Shown here in pieces: positions 13,604 to 31,195 of a stretch of DNA of 59,351 nucleotides. The position numbers were made by a program, and so were the translations under genes. Source of the DNA: an uncultured Candidatus Saccharibacteria bacterium (lineage in GTDB: Bacteria > Patescibacteriota > Saccharimonadia > CAZHVB01). The number at the start of each line of letters is the position of its first letter. The first letter of the stretch is position 1. Location: the NCBI GenBank assembly GCA_964600295.1, contig CAZRIY010000003.1, forward strand, positions 1 through 59,351, written 5' to 3'. The notes beneath the pieces were generated by a model, which saw only the letters and a list, made by a program, of their open reading frames with translations, made no database searches and had not been told where the DNA came from.

Positions 13604-13728
13604 TTTCTTAACCTCTTACTTACTTTGTGAAGGCATTTTGAACGCTAGCTTTGACTTGGCTCGGTGTCGCCTTCTAAGTTTGTCTGGGTGTTTCCTAACA
13701 ATTTCGTTCGACATCTTTTACTCTCAGG

Positions 13729-16242: not shown

Positions 16243-17746
16243 CTAGGTCCATGGGGCGAATTAGCGATTCTATAAATTCTATTTCATTTTCGCTCAGACT
16301 ATACTTGCGATAGAGTTTGTCATCGGTCCATTTTTCGCTGAAATCTTGTACTGGTACGAAGGAATAAACTCCTTTGGCAGCATTTTGAGTGTTCTTCTTA
16401 AGGAGCACTAGAAACCTAAACAATCTGGTGCTTACGTACTGGCAAATATTGTTACAAATTTCAAGATCTTGATTAGCACCCAAGATTAAATAGGTCTCTG
16501 AGCATGCAGTATTTGATCCCGCAACCATGGGTTTACCTAATATCTGGTGAGGGAATGAATCACTACCGCTCCCAGCTTTAGAAATAAGGACTTTGTTGCT
16601 ATCCACCAATTTAATGTTTCTAGTCAGCATAGTTTTATCGGCATAAGAGATGCCTCCGTTTCTAAAGATTTTAACGTCGCCTTGCTTGGGAGTACTCCTC
16701 AGCGTAACGTTTGGCTCTATCCCAAATGGATTTCTTGAACTAACTTGCTTGATGAAGCTTTCTTCATTTTTCGACTTAACCTTATGGAGAATCGAAATTG
16801 CCTCGTTATATCGAATAAACGTATCGGCACCTTCTTCTAGAAGAGGTCTTGTCATTTCTGACACATTTTTACCTTTACGCGATGTAACCACATTGCATTC
16901 GCCTCTATGATCTCGATCCCACAAAAAGTAACAAACACCGCCTTTTATTTGAACCCCTGGGAAACAGTCTATAGCTTCGGGGAAATCAACGATTTGCCGT
17001 ATTCTATCGTCTTTGAGCATGCTATCTCTAAACTCATCTAGTCCCTTACCACCAGAGTACCAACGTGCTGGAATAATCATAGTAAGGTATCTAGGACTTA
17101 GTTTTTTAGCTTGTTCAACAAAATTGTTATAAATAGGCTTGGCGCTCGTCCCCATACCGCCGCCATCATTTAGTTGATAAGGCGGATTGCCAACTATTAC
17201 ATCAAATCTCATGTTATTGAAAATCCTTTCTGGCTTAGGCGTGTGTATGAATTGATAGGCATGTGTTTCAAGCTCCGTGCTTCGCTTATAAACTTCTTTA
17301 CTTGCTCCACAATAACTACAGTTACCCCTAACCCACGTATGATTAAATCTGTTATATAAGATATTGCCTTTTTCATCATCGAATTCTTCACAGACTGAAT
17401 ATTTACCATCCGCTCGCTTTGAGCAGTACAAGCTTCTTCTGGAAAGAAGTGAGGTAAGTTCTGTAATTGCAATTCCATAAAGTTGGTTTTTATATATGTG
17501 GTTAACTCTTTCTTGAACATTTGGTATTTCATTTTCTAAACCCTCCATTAATCTCTTTGCTATTTCTCTCATAAAAACACCGGTTTTAGATACAGGATCT
17601 AAAAACGTAACATTTTTGTCACTCCAAAACTCTTTAGGCAACAGGTCGAGCATTTCATTTACAAGCCTCGGTGGAGTAAAGACTTCATCGTTACTTAGAT
17701 TGGCAAGACAAGTAAGAACATCGGGATTGTAGTCGGTTTTTATCAT
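16229..17746 (-). CDS. Eco57I-family N6-adenine DNA methyltransferase with C-terminal target-recognition region
   Basis: FTPPRLVNEMLDLL, motif I FLDPVSKTGVF and motif IV VGNPPYQ. A Cys-rich insert (YCSK..VCEE..CSYCG) lies between motifs I and IV. Confidence 0.85.
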   Translation of the reverse strand: MIKTDYNPDVLTCLANLSNDEVFTPPRLVNEMLDLLPKEFWSDKNVTFLDPVSKTGVFMREIAKRLMEGLENEIPNVQERVNHIYKNQLYGIAITELTSLLSRRSLYCSKRADGKYSVCEEFDDEKGNILYNRFNHTWVRGNCSYCGASKEVYKRSTELETHAYQFIHTPKPERIFNNMRFDVIVGNPPYQLNDGGGMGTSAKPIYNNFVEQAKKLSPRYLTMIIPARWYSGGKGLDEFRDSMLKDDRIRQIVDFPEAIDCFPGVQIKGGVCYFLWDRDHRGECNVVTSRKGKNVSEMTRPLLEEGADTFIRYNEAISILHKVKSKNEESFIKQVSSRNPFGIEPNVTLRSTPKQGDVKIFRNGGISYADKTMLTRNIKLVDSNKVLISKAGSGSDSFPHQILGKPMVAGSNTACSETYLILGANQDLEICNNICQYVSTRLFRFLVLLKKNTQNAAKGVYSFVPVQDFSEKWTDDKLYRKYSLSENEIEFIESLIRPMDLGDGK

Positions 17747-18381
17747 GCGGCTCCTAATTCTAGAAAGTGTTTAACTGGATATTCTTTAATCGGTGTGGGT
17801 ATGAATGCTTTATCTCCTAGCGGTTCGAATAATGAACCTGCCTCAGGTGGAGAGTTTTCCAATAGATTTGCCAATGTAAAATCGCGTCTTTTAACAAGTA
17901 GACTATTGACCGAGCTCCATTCAGAAAAAATAATAGCCTTGGCATTTTGATCAGGTGTTTTTAGAGTGAGGGCATCTCCCCATGAAATGTTGCGACTGAG
18001 AACAAACTTTACTGTTTCTCTGCACGATTCCTTACATCTGCCCTTAAAAAGCTTTGTATAACGCTCATCAAATATTTCAAACATAGAGGCCCGACACTCA
18101 TCTACGTTATCCTCGAGAATATCAATTCCATAAATGCTTGATACCGCCACTAATGCATACCGCTCGTACTCTAACTGGCTTTTTTTGTAACGCTTCTCAA
18201 CTATGGCTTGTTTACGACGCAGAACTTCAGCCAAAAAATTACCGGTTCCACACGCAGGCTCTAGAAAACGTGAGTCAATACGCTCTGTTTCCTGCTTAAC
18301 TAGGTCAAGCATGGCATTAACTTCACGAGCATTCGTGAAAACTTCACCGTGGTCTCTAACTCTTTGCTTGGATTTATGCAT
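17743..18381 (-). CDS. methyltransferase-like protein with SAM-binding N-terminal half only (no NPPY/W motif)
   Basis: GEVFTNAREVNAMLDLV and LEPACGTGNFLAEV are present, but no catalytic motif IV. ATGA overlap with the downstream methylase. The ATG at 18381 has an AGAGGG Shine-Dalgarno sequence. Confidence 0.6.
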   Translation of the reverse strand: MHKSKQRVRDHGEVFTNAREVNAMLDLVKQETERIDSRFLEPACGTGNFLAEVLRRKQAIVEKRYKKSQLEYERYALVAVSSIYGIDILEDNVDECRASMFEIFDERYTKLFKGRCKESCRETVKFVLSRNISWGDALTLKTPDQNAKAIIFSEWSSVNSLLVKRRDFTLANLLENSPPEAGSLFEPLGDKAFIPTPIKEYPVKHFLELGAA

Positions 18382-18589
18382 TGATTGACCCTCTTTTGAC
18401 ACTTAGGCTGACATCTATCAGCCTAAGTATTTCCTCTTTCTTGAACCTGCGGTCACCGCGCGTTCCGAAGCGAATAGCTTCAACCTTGCCCTGATTTACC
18501 CAGTTGCGAAGAGTATTAGGATGGCAGTTCAAGACTTCGCAGGCCTGTTTGAGCGTTAAGACTTCAGGTAGTTCTTCAATCTTCATCAT
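18374..18589 (-). CDS. excisionase-family / MerR-like HTH DNA-binding protein
   Basis: LTLKQACEVLNCHPNTLRNWVNQGKVEAIRFGTRGDRRFKKEEI. It overlaps the start of the R-M-like operon. Confidence 0.7.
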   Translation of the reverse strand: MMKIEELPEVLTLKQACEVLNCHPNTLRNWVNQGKVEAIRFGTRGDRRFKKEEILRLIDVSLSVKRGSINA

Positions 18590-18671: not shown

Positions 18672-19934
18672 TCACCCTCGGTTATCGTAGATTTCCGATA
18701 ATGTATCAGTGGTAGCATGGAATGGCACGCGTTTGACGATTTCGTTGTCTAGGCCAAACATCTTGGCCGAGTAAACCACGTACTCTCCATAATGGTTATT
18801 AATGGCATCGGTGGCGTTCGCAATCTTAATCCGGCGCTCCTTCAAACCTTCGAATAGCGGTAGCGTCAATTTGGCTGCTTCGGCGAGATCGAAACAAGAA
18901 ACCGACAACTGGGTAACTTTTTGGTCAGCCGGCCGATGGTTAAGCAATGCCATAGCTGCATCGTAGAGATCGAGCGTGGCATACATATAACCACCGAATT
19001 TATGCCCTTTATGCAAGTATCCGCGTTCGAAGGATGCATAAACTGCTATGCCCCGGGCTGCCATCCCAGCACGTCTGAGCCTGCGGCCCATTTTCTCGCA
19101 TAACTTCATCATCAGCTTGCTCAATTCCTGATTCTCTGCAGTGAAATGATGCAGATGGTAGCCCTGGCCATAACTGCGGCGTGGGTGCTCGATAGTATCA
19201 ATTTCATATCCCCGCAGCCGCATATACCAGTAGTAGCCGACAATACTGTGGAACACCTGGTGCCGCAGTTTCCAAACCGGAGCCTCCAGGAAGTCGAGCG
19301 GCGTCCTGATACCGGCCAAATTCAGACGCCGTTCATAACGCACATTGATACCACAGAGATCCACTAGCTCCAGCGATTTATATACCTCGCGCAGATTATC
19401 TGAAGTGATAACATCCAACCCATCGGGTTTATGCAAGGAAGCCCCAAGCTTTGCCAGAAAGCGGTTGGTACTGATGCCGACGTTGCAGGTCAGCCAATCG
19501 CCGATCTCGGCCTTGATCCGCTGCTTGATCTCATAACCGATCGAAACCAGCCGCTTGAGATTTATCTTGGGCATGCCCTCGAAGTTAATTGCCGCCTCAT
19601 CAATCGAAAGCGCCACCACGTCGGGCGAGTAATCACGAAAAATCTCGGCAAACTTCTTGTGCACGTAGAAGTACTTATCGGGGTCTGACTTGATGATCTG
19701 GATTTTGGGCAGTATCTCCCGGGCCTGAAAGACGCGGAAGCCAGTCTTGATCCCGAATCGCTTGGCCTCGTAAGAGGGTGAGATGATGGTGCCAGTACGA
19801 TGGTCATTAGCCACCACGCCAATGGCCTTACCCCGTAACAGTCGGTTGGCCTGCTGTTCCACACTGGCAAAACACGAGTTCATATCAATGTGCATCACTA
19901 GTGGCTTAGCTGGGTTAAGCGGCAAGTCCGTCAC
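18672..19934 (-). CDS. Y-family DNA polymerase (DinB/UmuC-like), ICE copy
   Basis: MHIDMNSCFASVEQ and LSIDEAAINF catalytic motifs. GTG start inferred by homology with the 40346 copy. Confidence 0.9.
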   Translation of the reverse strand: MTDLPLNPAKPLVMHIDMNSCFASVEQQANRLLRGKAIGVVANDHRTGTIISPSYEAKRFGIKTGFRVFQAREILPKIQIIKSDPDKYFYVHKKFAEIFRDYSPDVVALSIDEAAINFEGMPKINLKRLVSIGYEIKQRIKAEIGDWLTCNVGISTNRFLAKLGASLHKPDGLDVITSDNLREVYKSLELVDLCGINVRYERRLNLAGIRTPLDFLEAPVWKLRHQVFHSIVGYYWYMRLRGYEIDTIEHPRRSYGQGYHLHHFTAENQELSKLMMKLCEKMGRRLRRAGMAARGIAVYASFERGYLHKGHKFGGYMYATLDLYDAAMALLNHRPADQKVTQLSVSCFDLAEAAKLTLPLFEGLKERRIKIANATDAINNHYGEYVVYSAKMFGLDNEIVKRVPFHATTDTLSEIYDNRG

Positions 19935-20175
19935 TGATTTCCTCTAGCAACCATTGCTGGTTACGGGTATTAAAGTTAAGCCGGAAGTAAGTAGTGCCAT
20001 CACAGACCGAGTAGATATGGTGCAGTGTCTTACCCTCCCAGCTCGGATGACAGAGATCGACTTCGCTGATTTTGTATTGGCGGCTCCGCCATTTCAGCAA
20101 ATGGGGTAAGGGAACCGACCGTTTGGGATCGTAGATCGTTACTACTCCAACCTGTTCGTCAATTTTCTCAACCAT
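19915..20175 (-). CDS. small conserved partner protein of the Y-family polymerase, ICE copy
   Basis: About 86 aa and clearly homologous to 40077..40331 (shared ...Y.L.F.T....W.L.EISDGL C-terminus). Overlaps the polymerase start. Confidence 0.6.
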   Translation of the reverse strand: MVEKIDEQVGVVTIYDPKRSVPLPHLLKWRSRQYKISEVDLCHPSWEGKTLHHIYSVCDGTTYFRLNFNTRNQQWLLEEISDGLAA

Positions 20176-20264
20176 CACCATCAATATACCAAACAAAAGC
20201 CGAACAAGAGAAATCTTGAGTGACTACAGTCTCGCAACACATACACAGGGGTATAATAAAAACC

Positions 20265-20741
20265 ATGGCAGACTTCAAGAATATGCAAAGGTTTGTTGCT
20301 CTGGTTGAGGAACATAATACTCAAGACTACAAAAAAGATGATGCGACACTAGGCAACTTATCGGACATCAACTATCTGATAGACAAAGCGATTAAGAAAG
20401 ATAATGCTCTTCGTGCGTTTCAAAATGAACATTTCGGCGAAAATAACAGACAGTTTAAGAACCCAAAAGTTGTCGAGGTATTTAACCAGGCAAAGAACCA
20501 AGAATTTATAACATTGATGACCAGCAAGGACAACGAGCGTGTTGCTGGTGAGATTATCTTGGTTGAAGAAAAGGGACGAGAACTTATTAGAAAACCGTGG
20601 GTTTTACACAGATTTTTAGCATGGCTACAATTTCGCAATAACTTGGTTGTGCTAGCGGTGGCGTTGATAGCTGCGGGAATACTTTCAAATCTTGACCACA
20701 TAGATGATATCTTGAAATGGTTACGTGACCTGGAGGGATAG
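20265..20741 (+). CDS. hypothetical protein with C-terminal TM helix
   Basis: The track ORF 20220..20741 starts at a GTG. An ATG at 20265 follows a TATAAT-like box. C-terminal LVVLAVALIAAGILS. Confidence 0.4.
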   Translation: MADFKNMQRFVALVEEHNTQDYKKDDATLGNLSDINYLIDKAIKKDNALRAFQNEHFGENNRQFKNPKVVEVFNQAKNQEFITLMTSKDNERVAGEIILVEEKGRELIRKPWVLHRFLAWLQFRNNLVVLAVALIAAGILSNLDHIDDILKWLRDLEG

Positions 20742-20770
20742 TCACCGAAACCTTGGTCTATACTTAAACT

Positions 20771-21424
20771 ATGTGTGGCCGTTACACGCTGACTGAAACC
20801 AAAGAGATTTATGAGCGTTTCGGCGTCAAAGACCGACTCGAGAAACTAGAACCCAGCTACAACGTGGCCCCAGGACAATTCATGCCGATTCTTGTTAATG
20901 AAGATGGCAAACACCGAATGAAGCTTGCGAAGTGGGGCATCATTCCCTTCTGGGCCAAGGACAAACCCGGGATGATGCTGATCAACGCCAAAACCGAGAG
21001 TATTACACGGCCGACTTGGAGTCGTCAGTTCAAATCCCGCCGCTGCCTGGTGCCGGCCAGCGGATTCTTTGAATGGCGCAAGCGCGAACAAGGCAAAGAA
21101 CCGCACTATTTCTACCTTAAAGACCGCGATCTTTTCGCTTTTGCCGGCCTGTATGATGTAATCAAAACTTCCGATGAATACGAAACACTCACTTACGTAA
21201 TTATTACTACCGAGCCGAATAAGACGCTAGCGGAGTACCATAACCGAATGCCTGTTATTTTGGACAAGGCCGAGGAAGAGAAGTGGCTAGATGAAACTAC
21301 CCACCCCGATGATCTACTGGGCATACTCGATCCTATAGAGGATTCCAAGATGAAGGTCCACGCTGTAACCAAAGAAGCCAATAGTTCACGAAATAATTAT
21401 CCGGAGCTGATATATCCCCTTTAA
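20771..21424 (+). CDS. SOS-response-associated peptidase (SRAP / YedK-like abasic-site sensor)
   Basis: The N-terminus MCGRYTL with catalytic Cys2, and a length of 217 aa, are typical of SRAP. Confidence 0.9.
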   Translation: MCGRYTLTETKEIYERFGVKDRLEKLEPSYNVAPGQFMPILVNEDGKHRMKLAKWGIIPFWAKDKPGMMLINAKTESITRPTWSRQFKSRRCLVPASGFFEWRKREQGKEPHYFYLKDRDLFAFAGLYDVIKTSDEYETLTYVIITTEPNKTLAEYHNRMPVILDKAEEEKWLDETTHPDDLLGILDPIEDSKMKVHAVTKEANSSRNNYPELIYPL

Positions 21425-21519
21425 CAGAGGTCTCTCTAATTACGATTGGCGTGATTTTATTGCAGCTGTATGTAGGGCGCACCGGAAGAGTTTGGTCTAA
21501 TGACACCCAGTCATGGATA

Positions 21520-21548
21520 TTGACAAAGCGTGGGAAATTTTTTAGACT
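21520..21548 (+). promoter_or_regulatory. candidate sigma70-type promoter (TTGACA-17 nt-TAGACT)
   Basis: TTGACA at 21520-21525 and TAGACT at 21543-21548 in an ORF-poor gap. Confidence 0.3.
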
Positions 21549-21555
21549 AGAAATT

Positions 21556-21855
21556 GGTTGGTGGAAACCAATGCGCACATTTACAAAATACTTCTTGTAA
21601 CCAAGCTTAGCTGCGACAGCCGCTAGCCGGCTTAAGCGCTCCGGCGCTACTTATGGGCGCGCATTTATGCGCGTGCCGCAGGTAACCAAACCTGCTTTTT
21701 GCCCGGCACAGTGTGTCCCGTGTATCTAATATCACAGGTATACTCTAGTGCTACACCAAAGGGTATCTAGATCCTCCCGCAGTATCCTTCCGTTAGGGGC
21801 AGCCATAGCTGGCTACACCGTGTGGCAAGTCTGCGCGGAGAAAGGAGTATTCGCT
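21556..21855 (+). ncRNA. candidate structured leader / msr-msd-like ncRNA upstream of the RT operon
   Basis: No convincing ORF, and many short GC-rich hairpins: ttggtt..aaccaa, agcgc-tccg-gcgct, gcgcgcat..atgcgcg, gcagg-N8-cctgc+T5 and cgctat-gagaa-atagcg. Its position upstream of a retron-type RT operon supports the call. Boundaries are uncertain. Confidence 0.3.
21657..21700 (+). terminator. terminator-like tandem hairpins followed by T5
   Basis: The hairpin gcgcgcat/atgcgcg is followed by gcagg-taaccaaa-cctgc and then ttttt. Confidence 0.3.
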
Positions 21856-22056
21856 ATGAGAAATAGCGGAACACACATAAAGTCCGTTGCCCGGCTCGTC
21901 CGGAAATGGCAAGCGCAAGGGATACTGCGAAAAGATGTGGCTGACCAGCTTGTAAAAACCGCAAAGCAACTCCGGCACAGTGTAGCCGTAAAGGATGTAA
22001 AGCAGGTCGAAAAGTTGGTTAACAAGCTCTGTAAACTGATTTTAGGTTTGGAGTAA
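21856..22056 (+). CDS. small Lys-rich helical protein, first gene of the RT operon
   Basis: 66 aa. The ATG is preceded by AAAGGAG at 8-nt spacing. The track's longer version from 21748 overlaps the structured region. Confidence 0.45.
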   Translation: MRNSGTHIKSVARLVRKWQAQGILRKDVADQLVKTAKQLRHSVAVKDVKQVEKLVNKLCKLILGLE

Positions 22057-22128
22057 AAGGAGTAGTCATATCGTCTAGCCCCTTCGTAAGCGACTGATTA
22101 ATTTCGGTCATTTACGAGGGGAAACATT

Positions 22129-22422
22129 ATGAGTTACGGCAAGGCAATCAAGAAAATACGTGCACTAAGAGGTCTTTCGCAAAGAGATCTAGCTGTTGCT
22201 GTTGGTGTAGATGCGAGCTATGTTTCCCATATTGAGAACGGCAACCGCATACCAGGGATTGATAAAATCGAAAAGATCGCCAAAGGATTAGGCGTACCCC
22301 CTTATTTGTTAGTTTTATTGGCATCAGATAATCGGAATTTAAAAGGCAAATTACCCCAGAAGGATAAGCGTGAATTGGCCGAAAGCTTGCTTAGTATTTT
22401 GATGGACACTCATGCAAGGTAG
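22129..22422 (+). CDS. XRE-family HTH protein
   Basis: IKKIRALRGLSQRDLAVAVGVDASYVSHIENGNR. Its stop overlaps the RT start by 11 nt. Confidence 0.85.
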   Translation: MSYGKAIKKIRALRGLSQRDLAVAVGVDASYVSHIENGNRIPGIDKIEKIAKGLGVPPYLLVLLASDNRNLKGKLPQKDKRELAESLLSILMDTHAR

Positions 22423-23419
22423 CCTACTTGTATCGGAAGAGTTGCCGGTTAAATCCGATAGGTTCGTTTTTCTAAAACTTAGGTCAAATCCCCAGGAACT
22501 TGCACAATTGGGATCTGAAGCTGCCACTAGTTACCGGCCGTTTGATCTATACCAAGGCGTAAAAAATGGCCTTGAAAAATGGCGACACATTGATAATCCA
22601 TACGGTAGGTTAAAAGAAATACAATCTAGGTTGTACAGCCAATTCTTGCTACCTCTTGCGCCCCAACTACCACTCTTCCTCATTGGTGGCGTAAAAGGTA
22701 GATCAATCGTTGACAATGCCTCTCCTCATGTTCGTAGCGAGGCAGTGTTGAGTCTCGACTTGAAAAATTGTTTCCCGAGCATAAAACCAACAATTATATT
22801 TGGGGTGTGGCAAGGCAAGTTGGGTTTCAATCCCCATATCGCTGCAAAACTAACGCAGGTAACTACATACCATTTCAAATTGCCCCAGGGTGCTCCCACA
22901 AGTCCTATTTTATGCAATTTAGCACTCTACGATATGGCTAGCGAAATTGATGCTTACGCTCGTCACTCCGGATTGAATTTCACCTTATACATTGACGACA
23001 TAACCATATCGGGTGGTAAGAAATCGGTGCTAAAAGCAATAAATCCAGTAATTGAGCTGGTGCAAAAGTACGGTTACACAATTAACGGCAACAAAAAGAG
23101 AACTACCTATAAATCTCGGCAACAGGTAAGTACTGGCTTGGTAATAAACGAAAAAGTTTCTGTAAGCCGGGAGCGTTTAGAAAGTATTGGACATGAAATT
23201 AGACAAATCGCTCTCAAGCGGCACACCGCCACCAAGCAAGAGATTAATTCTGTTAGAGGTAAAATTGCTCAAGTGCAGGCTGTAGATGCTAAACACGGGA
23301 CAAAACTTGAATTGCTAGCCAACAAATTGATCGTAGATATAGTGGGCGCCGATACATTTCAAAGACAGGACAAAATAGTGTGGTGCATCAGAAAGGCTAA
23401 TTGCCTTGCCCTAAAGTAA
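22412..23419 (+). CDS. retron-type reverse transcriptase
   Basis: 335 aa. Motifs RHIDNPYGRLKEIQSRL, GGVKGRSIVDNASPH, SLDLKNCFPSI, LPQGAPTSPILCN, the YxDD box LYIDDITISG, and VSTGLVINEKVSV (the VTG-like motif typical of retron RTs). Confidence 0.85.
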   Translation: MQGSLLVSEELPVKSDRFVFLKLRSNPQELAQLGSEAATSYRPFDLYQGVKNGLEKWRHIDNPYGRLKEIQSRLYSQFLLPLAPQLPLFLIGGVKGRSIVDNASPHVRSEAVLSLDLKNCFPSIKPTIIFGVWQGKLGFNPHIAAKLTQVTTYHFKLPQGAPTSPILCNLALYDMASEIDAYARHSGLNFTLYIDDITISGGKKSVLKAINPVIELVQKYGYTINGNKKRTTYKSRQQVSTGLVINEKVSVSRERLESIGHEIRQIALKRHTATKQEINSVRGKIAQVQAVDAKHGTKLELLANKLIVDIVGADTFQRQDKIVWCIRKANCLALK

Positions 23420-23512
23420 ACGTACAACCCAAACCGCTTATGGTATTTCGCAACAATGCTTTACATTTGTCAACCGATATAGTATTTTCTAGACATACCA
23501 GGGGGTTTGGTA

Positions 23513-23851
23513 ATGCAAAGGCGCAATTCTCTCAGGATTGTCACCTCGTTCCTAGCAGTAGGAGCTATCATGATGATTGCCCAACCCGTCTTCGCCCAAG
23601 CGGGCGTGGGACAAGTTGAAAACTTCATACGAAATATTATCCAGGTCCTCGCTGGAATAGCCGGTCTCGTCGCGACCGGTTTTTTTGTTGTTGGGGGCTT
23701 TGGCTACATCACCAGCTCGGGTAATCCCGAGCACCTAGATAAATCAAAGAAGACCCTGCTGTACTCGGCTATTGGACTGGCCATAACCATTTCCGCCTTC
23801 GTTTTGAGCAATATAGTAACTTCGCTGGCAATTAGGGCATTCGGAAGTTAA
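23513..23851 (+). CDS. T4SS pilin-like protein (VirB2/TrbC analogue, T4SS_pilin type)
   Basis: Signal/TM segment, then ...VLAGIAGLVATGFFVVGGFGYITSSGNPEHLDKSKKTLLYSAIGLAITISAFVLS. ATG at 23513 follows an AGGGGG Shine-Dalgarno sequence. Confidence 0.7.
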   Translation: MQRRNSLRIVTSFLAVGAIMMIAQPVFAQAGVGQVENFIRNIIQVLAGIAGLVATGFFVVGGFGYITSSGNPEHLDKSKKTLLYSAIGLAITISAFVLSNIVTSLAIRAFGS

Positions 23852-23858
23852 ACAAGAA

Positions 23859-25121
23859 ATGATGCACGCCACCGCCCACCTTTTCGGCGCGGCGGATGTG
23901 TCAGCCGCTGGCAACGCCATGCAGCAGTTTGTGGCGCCAATCATGTTAACCCTGGCCGGGTTGGCCGCTCTGGTCTGCGTCTTTTTCCTGGTCACGGCCG
24001 GCTACTCATACATCACCAGCACCGGCAAGCCAGAAAAACTCGAGCACGCGAAAAAGGTATTGCGCAACGCCATAGTCGGGCTAATCATCGTGATTGCCGC
24101 GGGTACGCTGACCAGCATTCTGAACCACGCCTACAAAGGTCCTAGTACCTCTGATGTTGCAAATTTACCGCCCCTGACCGCAGTCGAGCCCGAAGACAGC
24201 GGTGGTATCGTCGACATCTTGGTCAAGGGCATTGTCGGCCTGTTCAAACATATTATTGAATCTGCAGCCAAACCGTTTATTGCCGCGCTGGACTACTTCA
24301 CAAAGGCCACGCCGCTGATGGGTGAAAACTCGGCCGTATTTAAGTTGTGGCTGACTTTGGTTGGCATCGCCGATGCCTTGTTTGTGCTGGTGGTGGGCCT
24401 GATCGGGTTTCATGTCATGAGCGCGGCCTCCCTAGGTTTAGATGAAATTGAATTCAAGCACCTGCTGCCGCGACTGGCCATGACGTTTCTATTGATGAAT
24501 ACTTCAATCTTCGCCATCGACGCGGTTATTTCCCTGTCCAACGGCATGATCAGCGCCCTGGTAGCGAGTTTCAACAATAAATCAGTTTGGGATGCCCTAT
24601 CAACGATCACTTCTCAAGCAGGTGGTCTGGGGCTAGTAGCGCTGATGATTATGGTGGTGTTCCTGATACTATCCGTGATTCTGCTGGTCTATTACGTCAT
24701 GCGCCTAGTGGTGCTTTATCTGGGCGCAATCCTGTCACCGCTGGTGGTATTGCTGGCCCTGGTGCCAGGCTTCAAAGACTTCGCCAATACCGCAATCAAA
24801 TCCTATTTGACTACGGTATTTGTGCTGTTCGTGCATGTGGTCATCCTGATGCTGGCGGCTTCAATCTTTAGTGGATTAGTTAAGGGTGATGGGCAACAAG
24901 CCTTTGATCCAATTCTAGGGACATTGGTTGGTGTAGCCACCCTGGTCACTTTGCTGAAGACCCAGGGCATGATGATGCAAATGTCATATGTCAGCGTCGG
25001 CCCCAGAGCTCTGCGCAAACTGGGCAGTCAATTCATGACTGGGGTTAGCTACACCACCACCAAGATAAAGACCGTCCGGGCTACCGCCCAGGGCGCACGC
25101 AACGTCAGGCCTGCCAAATGA
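23859..25121 (+). CDS. pilin-like N-terminal domain fused to a polytopic VirB6/TrbL-like membrane protein
   Basis: Residues ~20-100 are paralogous to the preceding pilin (LAGLAALVCVFFLVTAGYSYITSTGKPEKLEHAKKVLRNAIVGLIIVIAAG). The remainder has more than 6 TM helices. Confidence 0.7.
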   Translation: MMHATAHLFGAADVSAAGNAMQQFVAPIMLTLAGLAALVCVFFLVTAGYSYITSTGKPEKLEHAKKVLRNAIVGLIIVIAAGTLTSILNHAYKGPSTSDVANLPPLTAVEPEDSGGIVDILVKGIVGLFKHIIESAAKPFIAALDYFTKATPLMGENSAVFKLWLTLVGIADALFVLVVGLIGFHVMSAASLGLDEIEFKHLLPRLAMTFLLMNTSIFAIDAVISLSNGMISALVASFNNKSVWDALSTITSQAGGLGLVALMIMVVFLILSVILLVYYVMRLVVLYLGAILSPLVVLLALVPGFKDFANTAIKSYLTTVFVLFVHVVILMLAASIFSGLVKGDGQQAFDPILGTLVGVATLVTLLKTQGMMMQMSYVSVGPRALRKLGSQFMTGVSYTTTKIKTVRATAQGARNVRPAK

Positions 25122-25636
25122 AGACCGCCATCGTTCCGGCCCAAGTTACTACAGTCGAGGACAAAGTCGCCGGCAATCTGAGCTTCACCCAACTTCTGCT
25201 CTTAACAGCTCCGGTCTTCTTGGATGGTGCAGTGATCGTCTTGATTCCGCCATTCTTGAAAATTACTCCATTCAAGCTGGTATTCGCCATTGTCTTTGCC
25301 TTTATTTGTGTAAGTTTAGCCATCCGCATTAAGGGCAGACTACTGCTGCAATGGTTGGTTATTCTAGCTAAATACAGACTGCGACCAGGGCTCTACGTAT
25401 ACAACAAGAACGATAAACATCTGCGAAAACCATCAAACGAGTCATTCCGGCAAACTACCATTCCAGTCGAAGCGCGTGCCGATAAGTTAAGCTCTCCGCC
25501 AAGCCAACTGATTCCCACGTCGGAAATGGTACGCCTGGAATCGGCCGTAGCCAACCCAGATGCTAGGTTTCACCTCAAAGCAACTAAGGGAGGACTGCGT
25601 GTCTATATTCGCGAAGTCAAAGAAAAAAGACTCTAG
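25118..25636 (+). CDS. PrgI/VirB3-like small T4SS membrane protein
   Basis: VEDKVAGNLSFTQLLLLTAPVFL is followed by two TM helices. The gene sits directly upstream of VirB4. Confidence 0.55.
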   Translation: MKTAIVPAQVTTVEDKVAGNLSFTQLLLLTAPVFLDGAVIVLIPPFLKITPFKLVFAIVFAFICVSLAIRIKGRLLLQWLVILAKYRLRPGLYVYNKNDKHLRKPSNESFRQTTIPVEARADKLSSPPSQLIPTSEMVRLESAVANPDARFHLKATKGGLRVYIREVKEKRL

Positions 25637-26210
25637 TCGCCGTCAAATAGACATCAAAGGTGTGAGCGACGGCGTCTTATTGCTACCCAACCACCACTAC
25701 CGAGCGATCTTGCAGGTTTCCTCGATAAATTTTGAGCTAAAGAGCGAAGCCGAGCAGGATGCGCTGATCGACACCTACCAGAGTTTTCTAAACTCTCTGT
25801 CTACCCCGCTGCAGATTGTGGCCCGGATTCGAGAAATGGACATGGATAAATACTTGGAGGAGTTCCGATCTAGGCTCAAACAGGAGCCAGAAGCAATTTA
25901 TCGGGCGCAAGTTGCCAACTACACCGAGTTCGTCAGTAGCCTGATATCCAGCAATAAGATACTGTCCAGAAACTTCTATGTAATTGTCCCCTTCAACGGC
26001 AAAGAACCGGACTTTGAAGTCGTTAAGGAGCAGTTGGCCCTAACCTTGGATATCGTCTCCAAAGGTCTAGCTCGCCTCGGCATGCATTCACGCCAGCTCA
26101 GCTCTTTGGAGATACTCGACCTGTTTTACAGCTTCTACAGCCCGGTTCAGGCCAAGCGCCAGCCATTGTCCCACCAGGCCATGCAACTACTAACGGAATC
26201 CTACCGATGA
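25599..26210 (+). CDS. VirB4/PrgJ-like N-terminal domain encoded as a separate ORF
   Basis: IDIKGVSDGVLLLPNHHYRAILQVSSINFELKSEAEQDALIDTYQSFLNSL is the typical VirB4 N-terminus. The GTG at 25599 follows AAGGGAGGA. ATGA overlap with the next ORF. Confidence 0.7.
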   Translation: MSIFAKSKKKDSSRRQIDIKGVSDGVLLLPNHHYRAILQVSSINFELKSEAEQDALIDTYQSFLNSLSTPLQIVARIREMDMDKYLEEFRSRLKQEPEAIYRAQVANYTEFVSSLISSNKILSRNFYVIVPFNGKEPDFEVVKEQLALTLDIVSKGLARLGMHSRQLSSLEILDLFYSFYSPVQAKRQPLSHQAMQLLTESYR

Positions 26211-27955
26211 ATATTTCCTTGCTGGAAAAGCCCGTCACGAAACTACGGGCCATCAAATCGCGTCGGGGCGAGCGCCCCAGGGAGCTTGCACTTAGCTTCG
26301 GCGAACAAGATCCGATGGATGTCATTTCTTACGCCGGCCTCGAAGAACAGTCAGCTCATCTAGTGATTGACGGCCGCTACGTGCGTTCGCTATTCATCTC
26401 CGGATACCCGTTTGTCGCCAGCTCAGGCTGGCTTAATAGCCTGATTAATTTCAACCACGATGCAGATATTTCATACCACTTGGGCAGTGTAGATGCCAAC
26501 CAAGCATTACCTAAGCTGCACCGCAAAATTACTGAGCTGGAATCCACCAAGCGAGCGATGATGAGGGCCGGCAAGATCATCGGTCCCGAGCTCACCGATC
26601 CATTGGAATCAGCCATCGGCTTAAGGGACAAAATCCAGCGGGGCCAAGAGAAACTCTTTCAGGTATCAATTTACGTAACCCTGACGGCCGACAACTTGGC
26701 GGAGCTAGACAAGATGACCAAATTACTCGAAACCGCGCTGTCTGCCAGGTTGTTTTTCAGCAAAGTCGCCCGTTACCAGCAGCTGGAAGGCTTGCAGTCC
26801 GTATTGCCGCGGGGAGAGGACATCTTGAACCAACGACGAAACTTGGACAGCTCCTCGGTGGCGTTGACCTTCCCCTTCATGAGTTCCGAACTGGTACAGG
26901 AGACCGGCATACTCTACGGCGTTAATAAATCGAATAATTCGCTGGTAATTCTCGACCGCTTCAGCCTGCACAATGCCAACAGCATCGTCTTCGCCCAATC
27001 CGGCGCTGGCAAGAGCTATGCCACCAAAGTCGAGATTCTGCGCCAGTTGATGCAAGGTACTAAAGTCATAGTCATAGATCCGGAACGCGAATATAAGCTG
27101 CTTAGCAAATCGGTAAACGGAACATATATCAAACTGTCGGCTCGCTCAAGCGAAAAACTTAATCCTTTTGACCTTTCAGTAACTTCCCGCGCCAAGTCCG
27201 ATCTGTCCGAACACACCCAGGACTTGATAGAAGTTATCTCACTGATGGCCGAGGGATTGAGCGCCCGCGAGAAGGCGGCCGTCGACAAAGCAATTCTGTA
27301 TCTCTATAAACAGCCCGGGCAGACTCCGCTATTGGAAGACTTATATCGAGTATTACTTAAGCTCAAACATACCAAGCTATGCGAACGGCTGGAAAAATAT
27401 ATCACGGGATCATTGGCCGGAGTATTTAACGCCCACACCAACATCAAGTTGGATAACCGCTTGGTGATTTTTGATATTAAGGACCTGCCGGAGAGCCTGC
27501 GCCAGATCATGATGATGATCATCTCCAATTTCGTCCAGAACCGGGTCAAAGCCCGCCCGGAAAAACGGCTTTTAGTAATTGACGAGGGCTGGCTGCTGCT
27601 CGAGCACGAGGAAAGCGCCCGCTTTGTGGCCGGCCTGGTGCGGCGAGCCCGTAAGTATTACCTGGGAGTGTCGATCATCTCCCAGCAAGCCAACGATTTC
27701 CTTAAAAACGACTACGGCCGAGCCATAGCCTCGCAAAGCAGCTTGCGGATTTTAATGCGTCAGGACACGACTACGATCAAGAACGTGGTGGCCGAATTCC
27801 ACCTCAGCGAATACGAGCAGAACTTCCTGCTGACCTGCGAAAAGGGGGATGCCCTGATTATCGCCGACCAAAATCACGTAGCGGTCAAAGTCGTGGCCTC
27901 GGACAAGGAACATCCGCTCATTACCACTAATCCTGCCGAGCTCTATCATCTATGA
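26207..27955 (+). CDS. virB4: VirB4-like T4SS ATPase (C-terminal ATPase part)
   Basis: Walker A AQSGAGKSYATK and Walker B LLVIDEGWLLL; 582 aa. Confidence 0.9.
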   Translation: MNISLLEKPVTKLRAIKSRRGERPRELALSFGEQDPMDVISYAGLEEQSAHLVIDGRYVRSLFISGYPFVASSGWLNSLINFNHDADISYHLGSVDANQALPKLHRKITELESTKRAMMRAGKIIGPELTDPLESAIGLRDKIQRGQEKLFQVSIYVTLTADNLAELDKMTKLLETALSARLFFSKVARYQQLEGLQSVLPRGEDILNQRRNLDSSSVALTFPFMSSELVQETGILYGVNKSNNSLVILDRFSLHNANSIVFAQSGAGKSYATKVEILRQLMQGTKVIVIDPEREYKLLSKSVNGTYIKLSARSSEKLNPFDLSVTSRAKSDLSEHTQDLIEVISLMAEGLSAREKAAVDKAILYLYKQPGQTPLLEDLYRVLLKLKHTKLCERLEKYITGSLAGVFNAHTNIKLDNRLVIFDIKDLPESLRQIMMMIISNFVQNRVKARPEKRLLVIDEGWLLLEHEESARFVAGLVRRARKYYLGVSIISQQANDFLKNDYGRAIASQSSLRILMRQDTTTIKNVVAEFHLSEYEQNFLLTCEKGDALIIADQNHVAVKVVASDKEHPLITTNPAELYHL

Positions 27956-28590
27956 ATCTGGTCTGGCCACTATTCAGATTATTTAAGACTGAGATCAAGA
28001 TAGTCCTGGCCTCCCTGGCCGTACTGATAGCGCTGCCGGTGGTTTCGTTGGCGGTGTTTGCGAGCGCCGGCTCAGACATTGTCGGCAAGGCGCTAGCCAA
28101 TCCCGTACCTGGCGGCCAGGCAGTCGAGTTGTTAGACCCGGACGGCAACGTGGTAGCCCAGCAGGAGAAATCCAGCGTCTGGCCGGTGCGAGGGATTGTG
28201 ACCGACGAATTTGGGGTACCCCGCAAGCACGGCATCCACCACGGCATTGATATTGCCAATGAATACGGATTGAGCGGAGACCCAGTTACAGTCTTTAGAA
28301 CAGGCCGAGTAACCAAGGTTGATGACCGAGGCTGGGGCGATTGCGGCCAATTCGTCAGAGTTAACCACGGCGACAACGTCACCTCGATGTACTGCCACCT
28401 TTCGGCGATTTTCGCTGCCGAGGGCGATGAAGTCGAGCCTGGCAAGATTATCGGCCTGGAAGGAAGCACCGGGGAATCCAGCGGCCCCCACCTCCACTTT
28501 CAGATCAGCGTTTACGACGTGCCGGTCAACCCGCGCAATTTTATGATCGGGGAGCCGGAAAGGAATCTGCCAAATGGCGGAGTTTATTAG
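27952..28590 (+). CDS. M23 (LytM) peptidase, T4SS-associated cell-wall hydrolase
   Basis: HHGIDIA ... GSTGESSGPHLHFQI, with an N-terminal TM segment. Confidence 0.9.
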   Translation: MNLVWPLFRLFKTEIKIVLASLAVLIALPVVSLAVFASAGSDIVGKALANPVPGGQAVELLDPDGNVVAQQEKSSVWPVRGIVTDEFGVPRKHGIHHGIDIANEYGLSGDPVTVFRTGRVTKVDDRGWGDCGQFVRVNHGDNVTSMYCHLSAIFAAEGDEVEPGKIIGLEGSTGESSGPHLHFQISVYDVPVNPRNFMIGEPERNLPNGGVY

Positions 28591-31195
28591 CTGGCTCGAC
28601 TGGCTTGCTTCGATAGTACCGACAATAGCGGTGATTATTACGATGGTCGCACTGACACTAATAACTATTTGGATTCTGGCGCGGATACTGCGCTTTTACG
28701 GCTGGATCCGCCAAGAGGCAGTTTACCTGGAGCTAACGCCTCCTTCACGGACTGATCGAGCGTCTCAAGCCACCCAGCAACTCTTCGCGGCCTTGCACGG
28801 AATGGGGATGTCACGTCGCTGGCGCGACCGGCTGCTAATGCGGCAGAGTCTGTTTGCTTTCGAAATTGTTTCCACCAAGTCCGAGGGGATTCGATTCTTG
28901 GTGCGCATCAGCCGCGAAGATGCCGGCACGCTTGAACGCACCATCGCCGCCTACCTGCCGGAAGTTAAGGTGGCCAGTGTAAATGAGCAAATCAAACTAA
29001 ACCCGAGCAAAAAGTCCCGCATAGTAGAGTTTAGGCAGAAACAACATTTCGCTTTCCCGCTACAAAATCACGAAACCCTGGAGATTGAGGATCCGATAGC
29101 CTACATTACTAGCGCAATGACCAAGCTGGCGCCGAGTGAGCGAATGGTCTATCAGATGGTCGTGACACCTGTGCACGTCCCTCAAGCCGATACTTTAAGC
29201 CATAAAATCCTCAGCAACGAGGACCTGCTGCCAAGGCTCAAAGGCAACCGCTCATACGCATCGCCGATCACGACCGCTATCAACTCGCTGTTGTTTGGTC
29301 TAATCGGCGCTGTCGGAAATCTGGTTCACGGTCCCTCCAAAAGCGATTATCGTTCGGCTCAAAAAGACTTGGAGTATCAGAAACAAGTTGCCAAGCGGCT
29401 GAAGCCGGCCAGAACGCTAAGTTATTTTGAGCACGAATTGGTTGAATCAATCCATCAGAAGCTCGCAGAACCCTTGTTCAGGGTTGAACTGCGGGTACTG
29501 CTCGACTGCGCGGACAAGCAGGAAATCCTACAACGCCAGAAAAGCCTGGAATCGGCGCTAAGTTTGTTCAACGTGCCCCGATACCAGGGCCTGACGCGCA
29601 AAGGAAGATGTTACGGCTGGTTCAGGACCTACCAGAATTTCAGGTTCGCCCATCGTCTACCTGCGGTCCTCCGATCAGCAAACCTGCTGGCAGCCACCGA
29701 ATTGTCGGGTCTGTTCCACTTTCCGCATTCGGTCACTGCTAAGACTGAAAACGTAATCAAATCCTTGAGCAAAACCCTGCCGGCTCCGGTGTCGCTGAAA
29801 AACGACGGTAAGCTGGACGTGCTGCTGGGCGAAAATCAACACCAAGGTACAACTACCACCATCGGGTTGGCCGCTTCCGAGCGTGAACGTCATATCTATA
29901 TCCTGGGAGGGACGGGTAATGGTAAAACCACTATGTTGCGGTACGGGATTGTCCAGGATATCAAAAACGGCAAAGGCCTAGCGGTGATAGACCCGCATGG
30001 TGACCTCGCCGCTTCGATTTTGCGCCACATTCCACAAGATCGTATAAACGACGTCATTTATTTGAATCCGGATGATGTCACCCACCCCATAGGGCTAAAC
30101 TTGCTGGAACTGCCTCAAGGCCTGAGCGCGGATGACTTATTGCGCGAGAAAGACTTAGTAACTGAAGCTACTATCTCCGTCATGCGTAAGCTTTTCTCCG
30201 ACGATGACTCCGGTGGCCACCGCATCGAATACGTCTTGCGAAACGCTATTCAAACAGCTTTGACTATTGAAGACGCTACTCTGTTTACAATTTTCGAATT
30301 ACTCAATGACACCAAGTATCGGCAGGCAATTACGCGAAATCTGGAAGACAAATATCTCAAGAATTTCTGGCGCAACGAACTGGGCAAAGCCGGCACATTC
30401 CAAAAAGTTAAGATGGCTGCCGGTATTACCGCTAAGATCGGGCGGTTTCTATTTTCCGCGTCGGCAAAACGAATACTCGAGCAACCAAAGTCCACTATCG
30501 ATTTTGACGATATTCTCAATTCTGGAAAAATTCTAATTTGTAATTTTTCCAAAGGACTGCTCGGCGAGGATACTTCAACTTTATTTGGTACCACAGTGCT
30601 CGCCAAGCTACAGCTGGCTTCACTCAGGCGCGCCCGCCTGGACGAGCATAATCGTCAACCTTTTTACCTCTACGTTGATGAGTTTCAAAACTTCGCCACG
30701 ATGGCGTTCGTGCAAATGCTATCGGAAGCTCGTAAATACAGACTATTCCTGACATTGGCCGAGCAGTCAGCCGCCCAACAGGAAGAGCAGAAATTGGTGG
30801 AAATTATCCTAGCCAACGTTGGCACGATAATTTGCTTCCGGTCGGGTAGCCCGGCAGATGAGCGGTTGGTCTTACCTTTGTTCAAACCCTTCCTTGAGAG
30901 CGGAGAGATCGCCAACTTGCCCGCATATAACTTCTACATGCGCATAGCGGCACTCCAAGCCCAAGAACCAATGTCGGGTGTAACAGTCCTGTTAAAGGAC
31001 GATGGGAGTGAAAATATTGCAAAAGAGGTTATATCAGCATCGCGCAGAAACCATGCTATAAGATTTAGACCAAAAACCGAGAATAAGCGGCCGGTAGCGC
31101 GCGTTACTACAGGCGAAACCGAGGTTAAACGGGCTGGCGCTAGCGGCGGCCTGCAACCAGCCTTGCGTCATCCCAAGCCCGCTCCAAAGCCCTAA
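28574..31195 (+). CDS. type IV coupling protein (VirD4/TraD/TraG-like ATPase) with large N-terminal domain
   Basis: N-terminal TM segment, Walker A GGTGNGKTT and Walker B YLYVDEFQNF; 873 aa. Confidence 0.85.
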   Translation: MAEFISWLDWLASIVPTIAVIITMVALTLITIWILARILRFYGWIRQEAVYLELTPPSRTDRASQATQQLFAALHGMGMSRRWRDRLLMRQSLFAFEIVSTKSEGIRFLVRISREDAGTLERTIAAYLPEVKVASVNEQIKLNPSKKSRIVEFRQKQHFAFPLQNHETLEIEDPIAYITSAMTKLAPSERMVYQMVVTPVHVPQADTLSHKILSNEDLLPRLKGNRSYASPITTAINSLLFGLIGAVGNLVHGPSKSDYRSAQKDLEYQKQVAKRLKPARTLSYFEHELVESIHQKLAEPLFRVELRVLLDCADKQEILQRQKSLESALSLFNVPRYQGLTRKGRCYGWFRTYQNFRFAHRLPAVLRSANLLAATELSGLFHFPHSVTAKTENVIKSLSKTLPAPVSLKNDGKLDVLLGENQHQGTTTTIGLAASERERHIYILGGTGNGKTTMLRYGIVQDIKNGKGLAVIDPHGDLAASILRHIPQDRINDVIYLNPDDVTHPIGLNLLELPQGLSADDLLREKDLVTEATISVMRKLFSDDDSGGHRIEYVLRNAIQTALTIEDATLFTIFELLNDTKYRQAITRNLEDKYLKNFWRNELGKAGTFQKVKMAAGITAKIGRFLFSASAKRILEQPKSTIDFDDILNSGKILICNFSKGLLGEDTSTLFGTTVLAKLQLASLRRARLDEHNRQPFYLYVDEFQNFATMAFVQMLSEARKYRLFLTLAEQSAAQQEEQKLVEIILANVGTIICFRSGSPADERLVLPLFKPFLESGEIANLPAYNFYMRIAALQAQEPMSGVTVLLKDDGSENIAKEVISASRRNHAIRFRPKTENKRPVARVTTGETEVKRAGASGGLQPALRHPKPAPKP

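Follow-up and report, generated by a model that had tools for sequence, protein, structure and literature searches.

A reverse transcriptase operon with a small protein gene and a structured leader

We analyzed a stretch of 59,351 nucleotides (nt) from an uncultured Candidatus Saccharibacteria bacterium (contig CAZRIY010000003.1); this whole stretch is called the window. The subject of this study is a reverse transcriptase (RT) locus at positions 21500-23419. A first-pass annotation, made from the letters of the window, had interpreted the RT operon as a retron, and this interpretation is supported by our analysis: RT_VI and HTH_VI were the top PADLOC matches of the RT and of the Cro/C1-type helix-turn-helix (HTH) protein encoded upstream of it. 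The retron is one operon, which is composed of a structured leader, the gene of a small protein (SP; a small toxin gene, if its role is judged by analogy), the HTH gene and the retron RT gene. The positions of all features are collected in Table 1. As described below, we consider that the locus is probably (at roughly 80%) a Type VI retron with a hybrid-RNA architecture; the class assignment is a prediction from the PADLOC profile scores. This retron type is already known as an anti-phage system of bacteria. The lineage found here is divergent and uncharacterized, and its candidate placement within Type VI is probably the heterogeneous "Large" clade.

Retron RTs are recognized by the YxDD motif, NAXXH in region X and a VTG triplet in region Y (Mestre 2020, PMC7736814). 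As the first-pass annotation described, the RT possesses the blocks GGVKGRSIVDNASPH, SLDLKNCFPSI, LPQGAPTSP, YIDD and VSTGLVIN, and its open reading frame (ORF) overlaps that of the HTH protein (called XRE there) by 11 nt. Furthermore, NAxxH is present as N102-A-S-P-H106 (NASPH), and STG (S-T241-G242) occupies the VTG site. The columns of both motifs are nearly invariant across 57 homologues, including the T and G of the triplet. The match to RT_VI (4.5e-67, 224 bits) covers the full length of the model; RT_III-A was the runner-up (180 bits), and the top 25 PADLOC matches were all retron RT models. Other profiles scored below their cutoffs: NCBIfam retron_St85 gave 156 bits (cutoff, 235), group II maturase TIGR04416 gave 37.7 bits (cutoff, 300) and NCBIfam Drt2 gave 28.4 bits (cutoff, 390). 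In Pfam, the RT matched the generic RVT_1 only and the HTH protein matched HTH_3. Neither Pfam nor PADLOC revealed a domain fused to the RT.

A Type VI retron is defined by a clade-3 RT, a Cro/C1 HTH protein of 91-110 amino acids (aa; cluster 2_1) and a small three-helix protein, and its HTH gene lies upstream of the RT gene or overlaps it (Mestre 2020, PMC7736814). All three proteins were found in the window. The HTH-associated retron class mentioned in the first-pass annotation is Type VI (PADLOC; Mestre 2020). No ATPase, nuclease, TIR or transmembrane effector was found at the locus, in agreement with the first-pass annotation, nor was there, adjacent or fused to the RT, an enzymatic effector of retron types I, II, III, VII, IX and others (ATPase, nuclease, TIR, phosphoribosyltransferase or protease).

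The nearest RT in a collection of 5.8 billion proteins shares 43% identity with the RT in the window. The top approximately 70 RT matches are 286-433 aa long (all but two, 320-358 aa) and come from metagenomes and metagenome-assembled genomes. The latter belong to Patescibacteria (Woesebacteria, Levybacteria, Saccharibacteria and Paceibacterota), Acidobacteriota, Planctomycetota and Myxococcota (Polyangia). We fetched 77 related loci (L001-L077). An HTH homologue is encoded directly upstream of the RT in 71 of the 77, and the SP-HTH-RT module is kept in 66. In contrast, no flanking gene family is common to more than 4 of 55 related loci. Because no flanking gene family is conserved, the module consists of the leader, SP, HTH and RT.

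SP is a real gene and a predicted toxin

The first-pass annotation noted a 66-aa Lys-rich ORF with a strong Shine-Dalgarno (SD) sequence. We confirmed this ORF, which is the SP gene: it encodes 10 Lys residues, and AAAGGAG at 21841-21847 precedes the AUG at 21856. After profile iteration, an SP homologue was found upstream of the HTH gene in 66 loci, that is, in every locus with sufficient upstream DNA. These proteins share the pattern L..L...G.L....KA.K.L.HAL...D.K....A...(L)L. SP is a real protein-coding gene. Differences among the homologues number 1581 at the third, 1097 at the first and 815 at the second codon position, and 717 codon differences are synonymous. AlphaFold, applied to database proteins, predicted a three-helix bundle for SP (H4-20, H26-44 and H48-63; pLDDT 81), which agrees with the fold reported for Type VI small proteins (Mestre 2020, PMC7736814). 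By analogy with the characterized systems described below, SP is predicted to be a toxin.

SP is difficult to detect by standard searches. A single-sequence search returned SP itself only, and a profile built from 47 SPs recovered just 14 proteins from the 5.8 billion. No homologue was found in the PDB by sequence or by fold, and no Pfam family exceeded the threshold (FIMAH matches in 9 of 47 members were sub-threshold). Public annotation hardly ever calls the SP genes of this family; a tblastn-level analysis finds SP in 66 of the fetched loci.

The leader is a conserved structured RNA

The promoter TTGACA-17-TAGACT proposed in the first-pass annotation was confirmed (Table 1). TTGAC is found 53-59 nt upstream of a conserved GCWC motif in 37 of 43 loci, and TTGACAA is the most frequent 7-mer in the leaders (26 of 46). 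When 39 loci were anchored on the -35 element, an operator-like consensus, ATGACT-N3-AGTCAT, appeared at -20 to -6; variants such as TGTCT..AGACA preserve the palindrome. In the window, this element is ATGACACCCAGTCAT. It is plausible that the promoter-adjacent palindrome is an operator for the HTH protein.

In most loci, no ORF of 100 aa or more occurs in a stretch of at least 400 nt upstream of SP. The leaders share ordered elements: the palindrome, the promoter, a 5′ stem-loop (SL0), GCWC-TTTRAAA followed by a pyrimidine-rich anti-SD sequence, hairpins A-D, a variable region, the first inverted repeat (IR1) and a hairpin that ends in the SD. Within the hairpin domain, the order is A, B, the motif ACTTATGG, C, the motif GCCGCAG, D and a U-tract. 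In the window, the region 21556-22130 has a folding energy of -207 kcal/mol (z = -4.7 versus shuffles).

The first-pass annotation suspected that the leader may encode the msr/msd RNA and proposed an alignment of homologous loci in search of compensatory changes. Such changes were found in SL0 and hairpins B, C and D. For this test, the sequences were aligned by MAFFT from sequence only, and the column pairs were taken from single-sequence folds. In the four hairpins (26 pairs, 32 loci), 82.6% of cells were paired as compared with 64.9% in shuffled alignments. The covariation score was 0.54 versus 0.25 in shuffles (0 of 500 were as high), and slid-register controls gave 0.09-0.20. Changes on both sides had occurred in 23 of the 26 tested pairs. 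The msr-like fold was found again in nearly all loci. RNAalifold on the plain MAFFT alignment recovered hairpin C alone. A covariance-model search, which was also proposed, had a divided outcome: the Rfam models gave nothing relevant for the leader (see Discussion), whereas our own model succeeded. This model (R1) describes the B-C-D core in 76 positions and was built from 25 loci, the window being left out. R1 matches 21631-21702 (32.3 bits, E = 2.4e-5), its sole match in the window, and recovers nine further held-out loci. Thus, the leader of approximately 300 nt is a conserved structured RNA.

Two features of the first-pass annotation are parts of this fold. The "terminator-like hairpin followed by T5" is present at 21678-21700; it is the conserved internal hairpin D of the RNA. 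The run of 6-bp palindromes also exists (six in 21600-21665 versus 1.2 expected from shuffles; p ~0.0025). All of them lie inside the GC-rich region of hairpins A-C, and we do not retain them as a separate element.

Long-range pairings sequester the SP start site

The first-pass annotation could not identify a clean a1/a2 pair. An a1/a2-like closing helix does exist. This helix, P1, is formed by 19 bp between 21574-21596 and 21842-21868 and lies across the SD and AUG of SP. The anti-SD sequence of each locus complements its own SP SD, AUG and first codons. In 43 loci, the mean energy of the cognate P1 duplexes was -20.3 kcal/mol, while that of non-cognate duplexes was -14.0 kcal/mol (permutation p < 1/5000). 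The SD segment AAAGGAGTATTC (21841-21852) recurs with one mismatch as AAAGGAGTAGTC (22056-22067) right after the SP stop codon. Therefore, the anti-SD strand 21587-21596 could pair with either copy, and the downstream SD-like copy is the one used in the minimum-free-energy fold of the whole RNA.

A second pairing connects IR1 with IR2, which lies just 3′ of SP. Cognate IR1/IR2 duplexes are again more stable than non-cognate ones (mean, -16.9 versus -12.7 kcal/mol; p < 1/5000).

The third element is a direct repeat, GCTACACC, with copy 1 at 21750-21757 and copy 2 at 21812-21819. Copy 2 is at the apex of a riboregulator-like hairpin, at the base of which the SP SD is paired. Exact direct repeats of at least 7 nt with a spacing of 50-85 nt occur in 30 of 42 loci, as compared with 5.5 in shuffles (maximum, 12) and 10-14 in control regions. 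Copy 1 is located approximately at -105 to -148 and copy 2 approximately at -40 to -77 from the SP start. The repeat sequence varies by locus (GGCAC, CGACACA, GGAGACC, GACGGAC and others), and the two members of each 7-10-nt pair change in concert. Such concerted change suggests that the identity of the repeats in the msd (the template of reverse transcription) and the riboregulator is under selection, as the model for Retron-Vpa2 (see Discussion) predicts; otherwise, it is hard to explain. Copy 1 is carried by the candidate msd hairpin, which falls in the variable region between hairpin D and IR1.

The first-pass annotation emphasized other repeats. The 12-mer CCGGCACAGTGT is indeed present twice, at 21703 and 21972, the first coordinate having been given one base too low (21702). 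Likewise, GGCTACAC at 21811 pairs with GTGTAGCC, the position of which is 21980 and not 21979. Both features are specific to the window, and we rejected them as features of the family, in which the conserved repeat corresponds to GCTACACC. One copy of CCGGCACAGTGT (21703-21714) is in the stem of the msd candidate; the other (region 21972-21987) falls on the SP codons that specify the conserved L-R-H-S-V segment. By chance, about 0.03 exact 12-mer repeats of this kind would be expected in the region. The coding-sequence copy is able to pair with 21811-21822 around repeat 2, which was unseen in 29 other loci. In the window, repeat 2 and the SP coding sequence are complementary with z = -2.8; elsewhere, the median z is 0.1, and only 1 of 30 loci has z < -2.

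A hairpin between SP and HTH covers the HTH ribosome-binding site

The spacer between SP and HTH forms a long, near-perfect hairpin (z < -2 in 41 of 52 loci). It ends at a median distance of 4 nt from the HTH start codon and pairs at least 6 of the 12 nucleotides in the HTH SD window in 39 of 52 loci. This hairpin would sequester the ribosome-binding site (RBS) of HTH. IR2 overlaps its 5′ arm; owing to this overlap, the IR1/IR2 pairing and the intergenic hairpin are expected to exclude each other. A few loci have a hairpin that stops earlier, with a U-run behind it, so that the 3′ end of the hybrid RNA may also be defined by this hairpin. We considered this hairpin as the true msd/msr, with IR2 as the a1 strand followed by a branching G, and rejected the idea since the relatives have no G after IR2.

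Table 1 Features of the Type VI retron locus and its surroundings in the window
Feature	Position	Strand	Remarks
Palindrome ATGACACCCAGTCAT	21500-21514	.	5 nt upstream of -35; candidate HTH operator
Sigma-70-type promoter TTGACA-17-TAGACT	21520-21548	+	Transcription start expected near 21555
5′ stem-loop SL0 (AUUGGUU/AACCAAU)	21553-21572	+	Covaries across 32 loci; all 5 pairs changed on both sides
P1 5′ strand	21573-21597	+	GCWC-TTTRAAA motif, then anti-SD AAUACUUCUU
msr-like domain	21603-21702	+	Hairpins A-D and U-tract
Hairpin A	21603-21633	+	msr-like domain
Hairpin B	21635-21648	+	msr-like domain
Motif ACTTATGG	21649-21656	+	Between hairpins B and C
Hairpin C	21656-21677	+	msr-like domain
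Hairpin D, then U-tract	21678-21695	+	"Terminator-like hairpin" of the first-pass annotation
Candidate msd hairpin	21693-21765	+	Carries repeat 1; by position and analogy with Retron-Vpa2
IR1	21759-21771	+	Family consensus AAAAA..TTAAGG, pairing with CCTTAA
Riboregulator-like hairpin	21779-21854	+	Repeat 2 GCTACACC at apex; SP SD paired at base
P1 3′ strand	21842-21868	+	Covers SP SD (AAGGAG), AUG (21856) and first codons
SP, 66 aa, predicted toxic effector	21856-22056	+	Homologues in 66 loci
IR2 (UCUAGCCCCUU)	22074-22084	+	Just after SP stop; overlaps 5′ arm of intergenic hairpin
Intergenic hairpin	22080-22121	+	3′ arm holds HTH SD (GAGGGG, 22116-22121)
Cro/C1-type HTH protein, 97 aa, Type VI HTH	22129-22422	+	PADLOC HTH_VI 1.6e-21 (top match); Pfam HTH_3 1.1e-17
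Retron RT, 335 aa	22412-23419	+	PADLOC RT_VI; Pfam RVT_1
uvrD-like	4155-6272		Other side of island
pgk	7946-9166		Other side of island
294-aa ORF	12719-13603	-	Sub-threshold SMODS match
ResIII helicase, 837 aa	13729-16242	-	N-terminal T5orf172/GIY-YIG-like domain
Eco57I-type methylase	16229-17746	-	Restriction-modification-like cluster 12719-18402
MmeI_Mtase-domain ORF	17743-18402	-	Directly after methylase
Y-family polymerase (IMS/IMS_C)	18672-19934	-	Damage-tolerance pair
173-aa ORF	20220-20741		Between polymerase and SRAP genes; hydrophobic C-terminal segment; no Pfam match
SRAP protein	20771-21424	+	Immediately upstream of retron
TrbC/VirB2-type pilin	23507-23851		Type IV secretion system set
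TrbL/VirB6-like	23859-25121		Type IV secretion system set
PrgI	25118-25636		Type IV secretion system set
VirB4-like ATPase	26207-27955		Type IV secretion system set
M23 peptidase	27952-28590		Type IV secretion system set
VirD4-like coupling protein	28574-31195		Type IV secretion system set
Large serine recombinase	38164-39879		3′ end overlaps tRNA-Glu (39839-39913, minus strand)
tRNA-Pro(tgg)	46879-46955	-
tRNA-His, Arg(tct), Gly(tcc) cluster	52978-53786	-

Genomic context

The retron is situated between a restriction-modification-like and damage-tolerance region on one side and a type IV secretion system gene set on the other (Table 1). The Eco57I methylase and MmeI_Mtase ORFs may be one gene that has been split or frameshifted. 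The damage-tolerance pair (18672-21424) is not conserved beside related retrons. The type IV secretion system gene set, together with the serine recombinase at tRNA-Glu, suggests a putative integrative conjugative element (ICE) that carries the retron, as judged from gene content. The two further tRNA regions look like ordinary chromosomal context.

Discussion

The first-pass annotation called an RT with only an HTH protein and a tiny protein as partners a poorly understood configuration. Two preprints (10.1101/2025.10.22.683967 and 10.64898/2026.04.27.721009) show that in Type VI retrons the small protein is a toxin embedded in a hybrid RNA. Because the features in the window match the hybrid RNA of Retron-Vpa2 and Retron-Sen3, the configuration is no longer poorly understood. 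Retron-Vpa2 from Vibrio parahaemolyticus produces a hybrid RNA of approximately 470 nt, of which the msr-msd and the coding sequence of SP are parts; its RBS and AUG are sequestered, it is closed by inverted repeats and it has conserved 7-nt direct repeats (Zhang et al., 10.1101/2025.10.22.683967). SP is a toxin, the HTH protein represses reverse transcription, and SP translation needs phage-induced multicopy single-stranded DNA (msDNA). The authors propose that the cDNA copy of the msd repeat hybridizes to the riboregulator repeat (10.1101/2025.10.22.683967). In Retron-Sen3 from Salmonella (cl2075 lineage), there is a 5′ stem-loop, the RBS is in a basal stem, and IR1 and IR2 flank SP (Garcia-Rodriguez et al., 10.64898/2026.04.27.721009). 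Single-stranded DNA (ssDNA) and SP are constitutive, and control by the HTH protein is post-translational (10.64898/2026.04.27.721009).

If the locus in the window works as proposed for Retron-Vpa2, the following scheme can be drawn. The sigma-70 promoter and the adjacent palindromic operator would drive a hybrid RNA of approximately 570 nt. Its 5′ part would fold as an msr/msd-like domain, and the same RNA would contain the SP coding sequence. The SD and AUG of SP would be paired with the 5′ anti-SD strand and within the local riboregulator hairpin, so that SP would be translationally silent. The RT and HTH proteins would be expected to bind the hybrid RNA. Upon phage infection, the msd hairpin would be reverse-transcribed into an ssDNA with the complement of repeat 1 at its 5′ end. 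By hybridizing to repeat 2, which is identical to repeat 1 and lies in the riboregulator loop, this ssDNA would make the RBS accessible. Synthesis of SP, the three-helix toxin, would follow, with arrest of the infected cell. We give even odds to the operation of such a Vpa2-type translational switch here. From the analogy with Retron-Vpa2 and Retron-Sen3, we presume a toxic SP, an HTH protein that is a repressor or antitoxin, the production of msDNA, the trigger and a function in defence.

The intergenic hairpin raises a further, rather unlikely idea, that the hybrid RNA carries two coupled translational switches, one for SP (known) and one for HTH (undescribed). In this scheme, the IR1/IR2 pairing would expose the HTH RBS and the loss of this pairing would hide it. 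Reverse transcription of the msd/IR1 region, or removal of its RNA, could for example cause this loss. If this were true, one reverse-transcription event would turn the toxin on and the antitoxin or repressor off together, and the concerted change of the direct repeats would be comparative evidence for msDNA-RNA hybridization as a selected interaction. We have not found the spacer hairpin or the promoter operator described for Type VI retrons.

Several points weigh against our assignment of a Type VI retron with a hybrid RNA and its Vpa2-type operation. For the present lineage, the case is built from sequence comparison. The msd can be placed at 21693-21765 only as a weak candidate, by analogy; most homologues have a longer variable (msd) region than the window, a conserved branching G was not identified, and the window offered no long perfect stem that could be assigned to the msd. 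An Rfam scan of 20500-24000 down to E = 10 gave nothing relevant (two chance-level matches lay elsewhere), and in the whole window only tRNAs reached the gathering scores. Neither R1 nor the SP family could be connected with a Type VI locus on the Bacteroides plasmid pBUN2 (described below): R1 had no match there, and SP has no detectable sequence similarity with its small ORF. SP resembles the Type VI small proteins (named clusters cl2075, cl2760, cl3272 and cl3897) in predicted fold and in position. Six Type VI retrons, one of them from Candidatus Levybacteria, gave no detectable ssDNA in Escherichia coli; Levybacteria are represented among the homologues of the window. Finally, since Retron-Sen3 has a sequestered RBS yet makes SP constitutively, RNA structure by itself does not prove translational control.

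This last point leads to an explanation that is possible, although we hold it to be clearly less probable than not: the same Type VI retron may operate in the manner of Retron-Sen3. In that case, ssDNA and SP would be constitutive and HTH would be a post-translational antitoxin; the toxin would be freed when a phage interferes with a surveillance complex of the host (RecBCD in Salmonella), whatever the ssDNA level. A comparable architecture is reported in the Sen3 preprint, with the RBS in a basal stem and IR1/IR2 flanking SP, and yet control is post-translational. The 11-nt overlap of HTH and RT is consistent with co-expression, and the sequestered RBS of HTH suggests that the dosage of HTH matters. 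However, the concerted change of the direct repeats is hard to explain without selection for repeat identity, and the pairing of the SD and AUG is kept up by locus-specific changes. The concerted change of the repeat pair thus favours a Vpa2-type switch over Sen3-type control.

It is doubtful that the module mainly serves the mobile element, as an SP/HTH toxin-antitoxin cassette for addiction or exclusion that is regulated by the RT and RNA and stabilizes the conjugative element. The position of the locus between the restriction-modification/damage-tolerance cluster and the type IV secretion system genes, and the serine recombinase abutting tRNA-Glu, would fit such a role, and the HTH-SP pair of Retron-Sen3 works as a toxin-antitoxin without RT or ncRNA (non-coding RNA). 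Nevertheless, related loci have unrelated neighbours and no conserved linkage to a type IV secretion system, and both characterized Type VI retrons defend against phages. Since ICEs often carry defence islands, one role does not exclude the other. Equally improbable, in our view, is a leader that is only a regulatory 5′ untranslated region or attenuator, templates no msDNA and leaves the RT idle or acting on another template. Hairpin D and its U-tract resemble an intrinsic terminator, and the missing msd stem and branching G as well as the Type VI retrons without ssDNA in E. coli are in line with this idea. In contrast, the RT retains YIDD and all conserved blocks, hairpin D and the U-tract are conserved inside a larger covarying fold, and Retron-Vpa2 and Retron-Sen3 both yield RT-dependent ssDNA from the equivalent region. 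That the RT is a non-retron enzyme (Abi, DRT, group II intron or other) beside an XRE gene by chance, as the generic RVT_1 match and the sub-cutoff retron_St85 score might suggest, is hardly credible in view of the retron RT models in all top PADLOC ranks, the very low maturase and Drt2 scores, and the presence of NAxxH together with a conserved HTH, SP and ncRNA.

Our preferred reading, a Type VI retron with a hybrid RNA, extends the design in which a toxin gene is hidden in the template RNA of the retron itself to a divergent clade, mostly from uncultivated Patescibacteria-type and soil or sediment bacteria. Because the architecture is common and the sequences differ, the approximately 50 diverse loci form a natural mutagenesis series. 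The locus-specific, concerted changes in anti-SD/SD, IR1/IR2 and the direct repeats are a separate, comparative line of support for the msDNA-triggered riboregulator that has been proposed. Further testable items come from these loci, namely the promoter operator and the hairpin that would gate HTH translation. For annotation, it is of consequence that the small toxin gene is almost never called and that the leader RNA has no Rfam model.

Comparison with known systems

The window reproduces the hybrid-RNA architecture of Retron-Vpa2 and Retron-Sen3 point by point. No proteobacterial Type VI RT was among the top 120 RT matches, and the likeness to Retron-Vpa2 is one of description. Both have the operon order ncRNA, SP, HTH and RT, and in both SP is embedded in a structured hybrid RNA with its RBS and start codon sequestered. 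Inverted repeats tie the RNA 3′ of SP back to the ncRNA, the msd region and the riboregulator loop each hold one of a pair of direct repeats of approximately 7 nt, and SP is a small helical protein with a hydrophobic C-terminal helix. Several differences exist. In place of the GGCAC core of most relatives and of the Bacteroides locus, the window has the repeat GCTACACC; the variable region is short; and the host is of the Patescibacteria type, with the locus on a putative ICE. Moreover, the SP-HTH hairpin (11 + 6 bp here, 12-25 bp elsewhere) that would sequester the HTH RBS was not found described in the sections consulted of the Vpa2 preprint.

The window shares with Retron-Sen3 a conserved stem-loop (here SL0) that precedes the first inverted repeat at the very 5′ end, the pairing of IR1 in the ncRNA with IR2 just 3′ of the SP stop, a predicted paired HTH RBS and an HTH gene that overlaps the RT gene. 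However, the SP of Retron-Sen3 has 79 aa with an N-terminal extension, as compared with 66 aa here. Furthermore, its HTH RBS pairs with a short 5′ segment, whereas the HTH RBS in the window is in a long local hairpin that overlaps IR2. A Salmonella locus considered as a relative of Retron-Sen3 (P0082) was rejected: it is a St85-type locus with a STM3845 neighbour and not Type VI.

A Type VI retron without an HTH gene is present on Bacteroides uniformis plasmid pBUN2 (NZ_AP019726.1, 1299-2511; our locus L080; RT_VI, 279 bits). Its RT is 34% identical over the core, and a small ORF lies directly upstream (71 aa, Lys-rich, with its end 24 nt from the RT gene). The plasmid locus also has the 5′ motif GTTCTTTGA. 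The 13-nt direct repeat TTTTAGGCACGTG occurs at 1299 and 1370, which correspond to -115 and -44 from the start of the small ORF; both the positions and the GGCAC core agree with those in the family of the window. The two loci differ in the HTH gene, in the small ORF, which is unrelated in sequence, and in the B-C-D core.

Finally, the locus resembles the canonical retrons (Ec86/Eco1, and St85/Sen2 of Type II-A) in NAxxH and in STG at the VTG position. The upstream ncRNA is also organized similarly: short msr-type hairpins are followed by a variable hairpin, and a terminal inverted repeat closes the RNA. Unlike the canonical retrons, the locus in the window possesses no enzymatic effector, and in the closing helix it is the presumed toxin's own SD and AUG that serve as the 3′ strand. 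Moreover, as proposed for the characterized relative, msDNA would switch the toxin on rather than hold it off.

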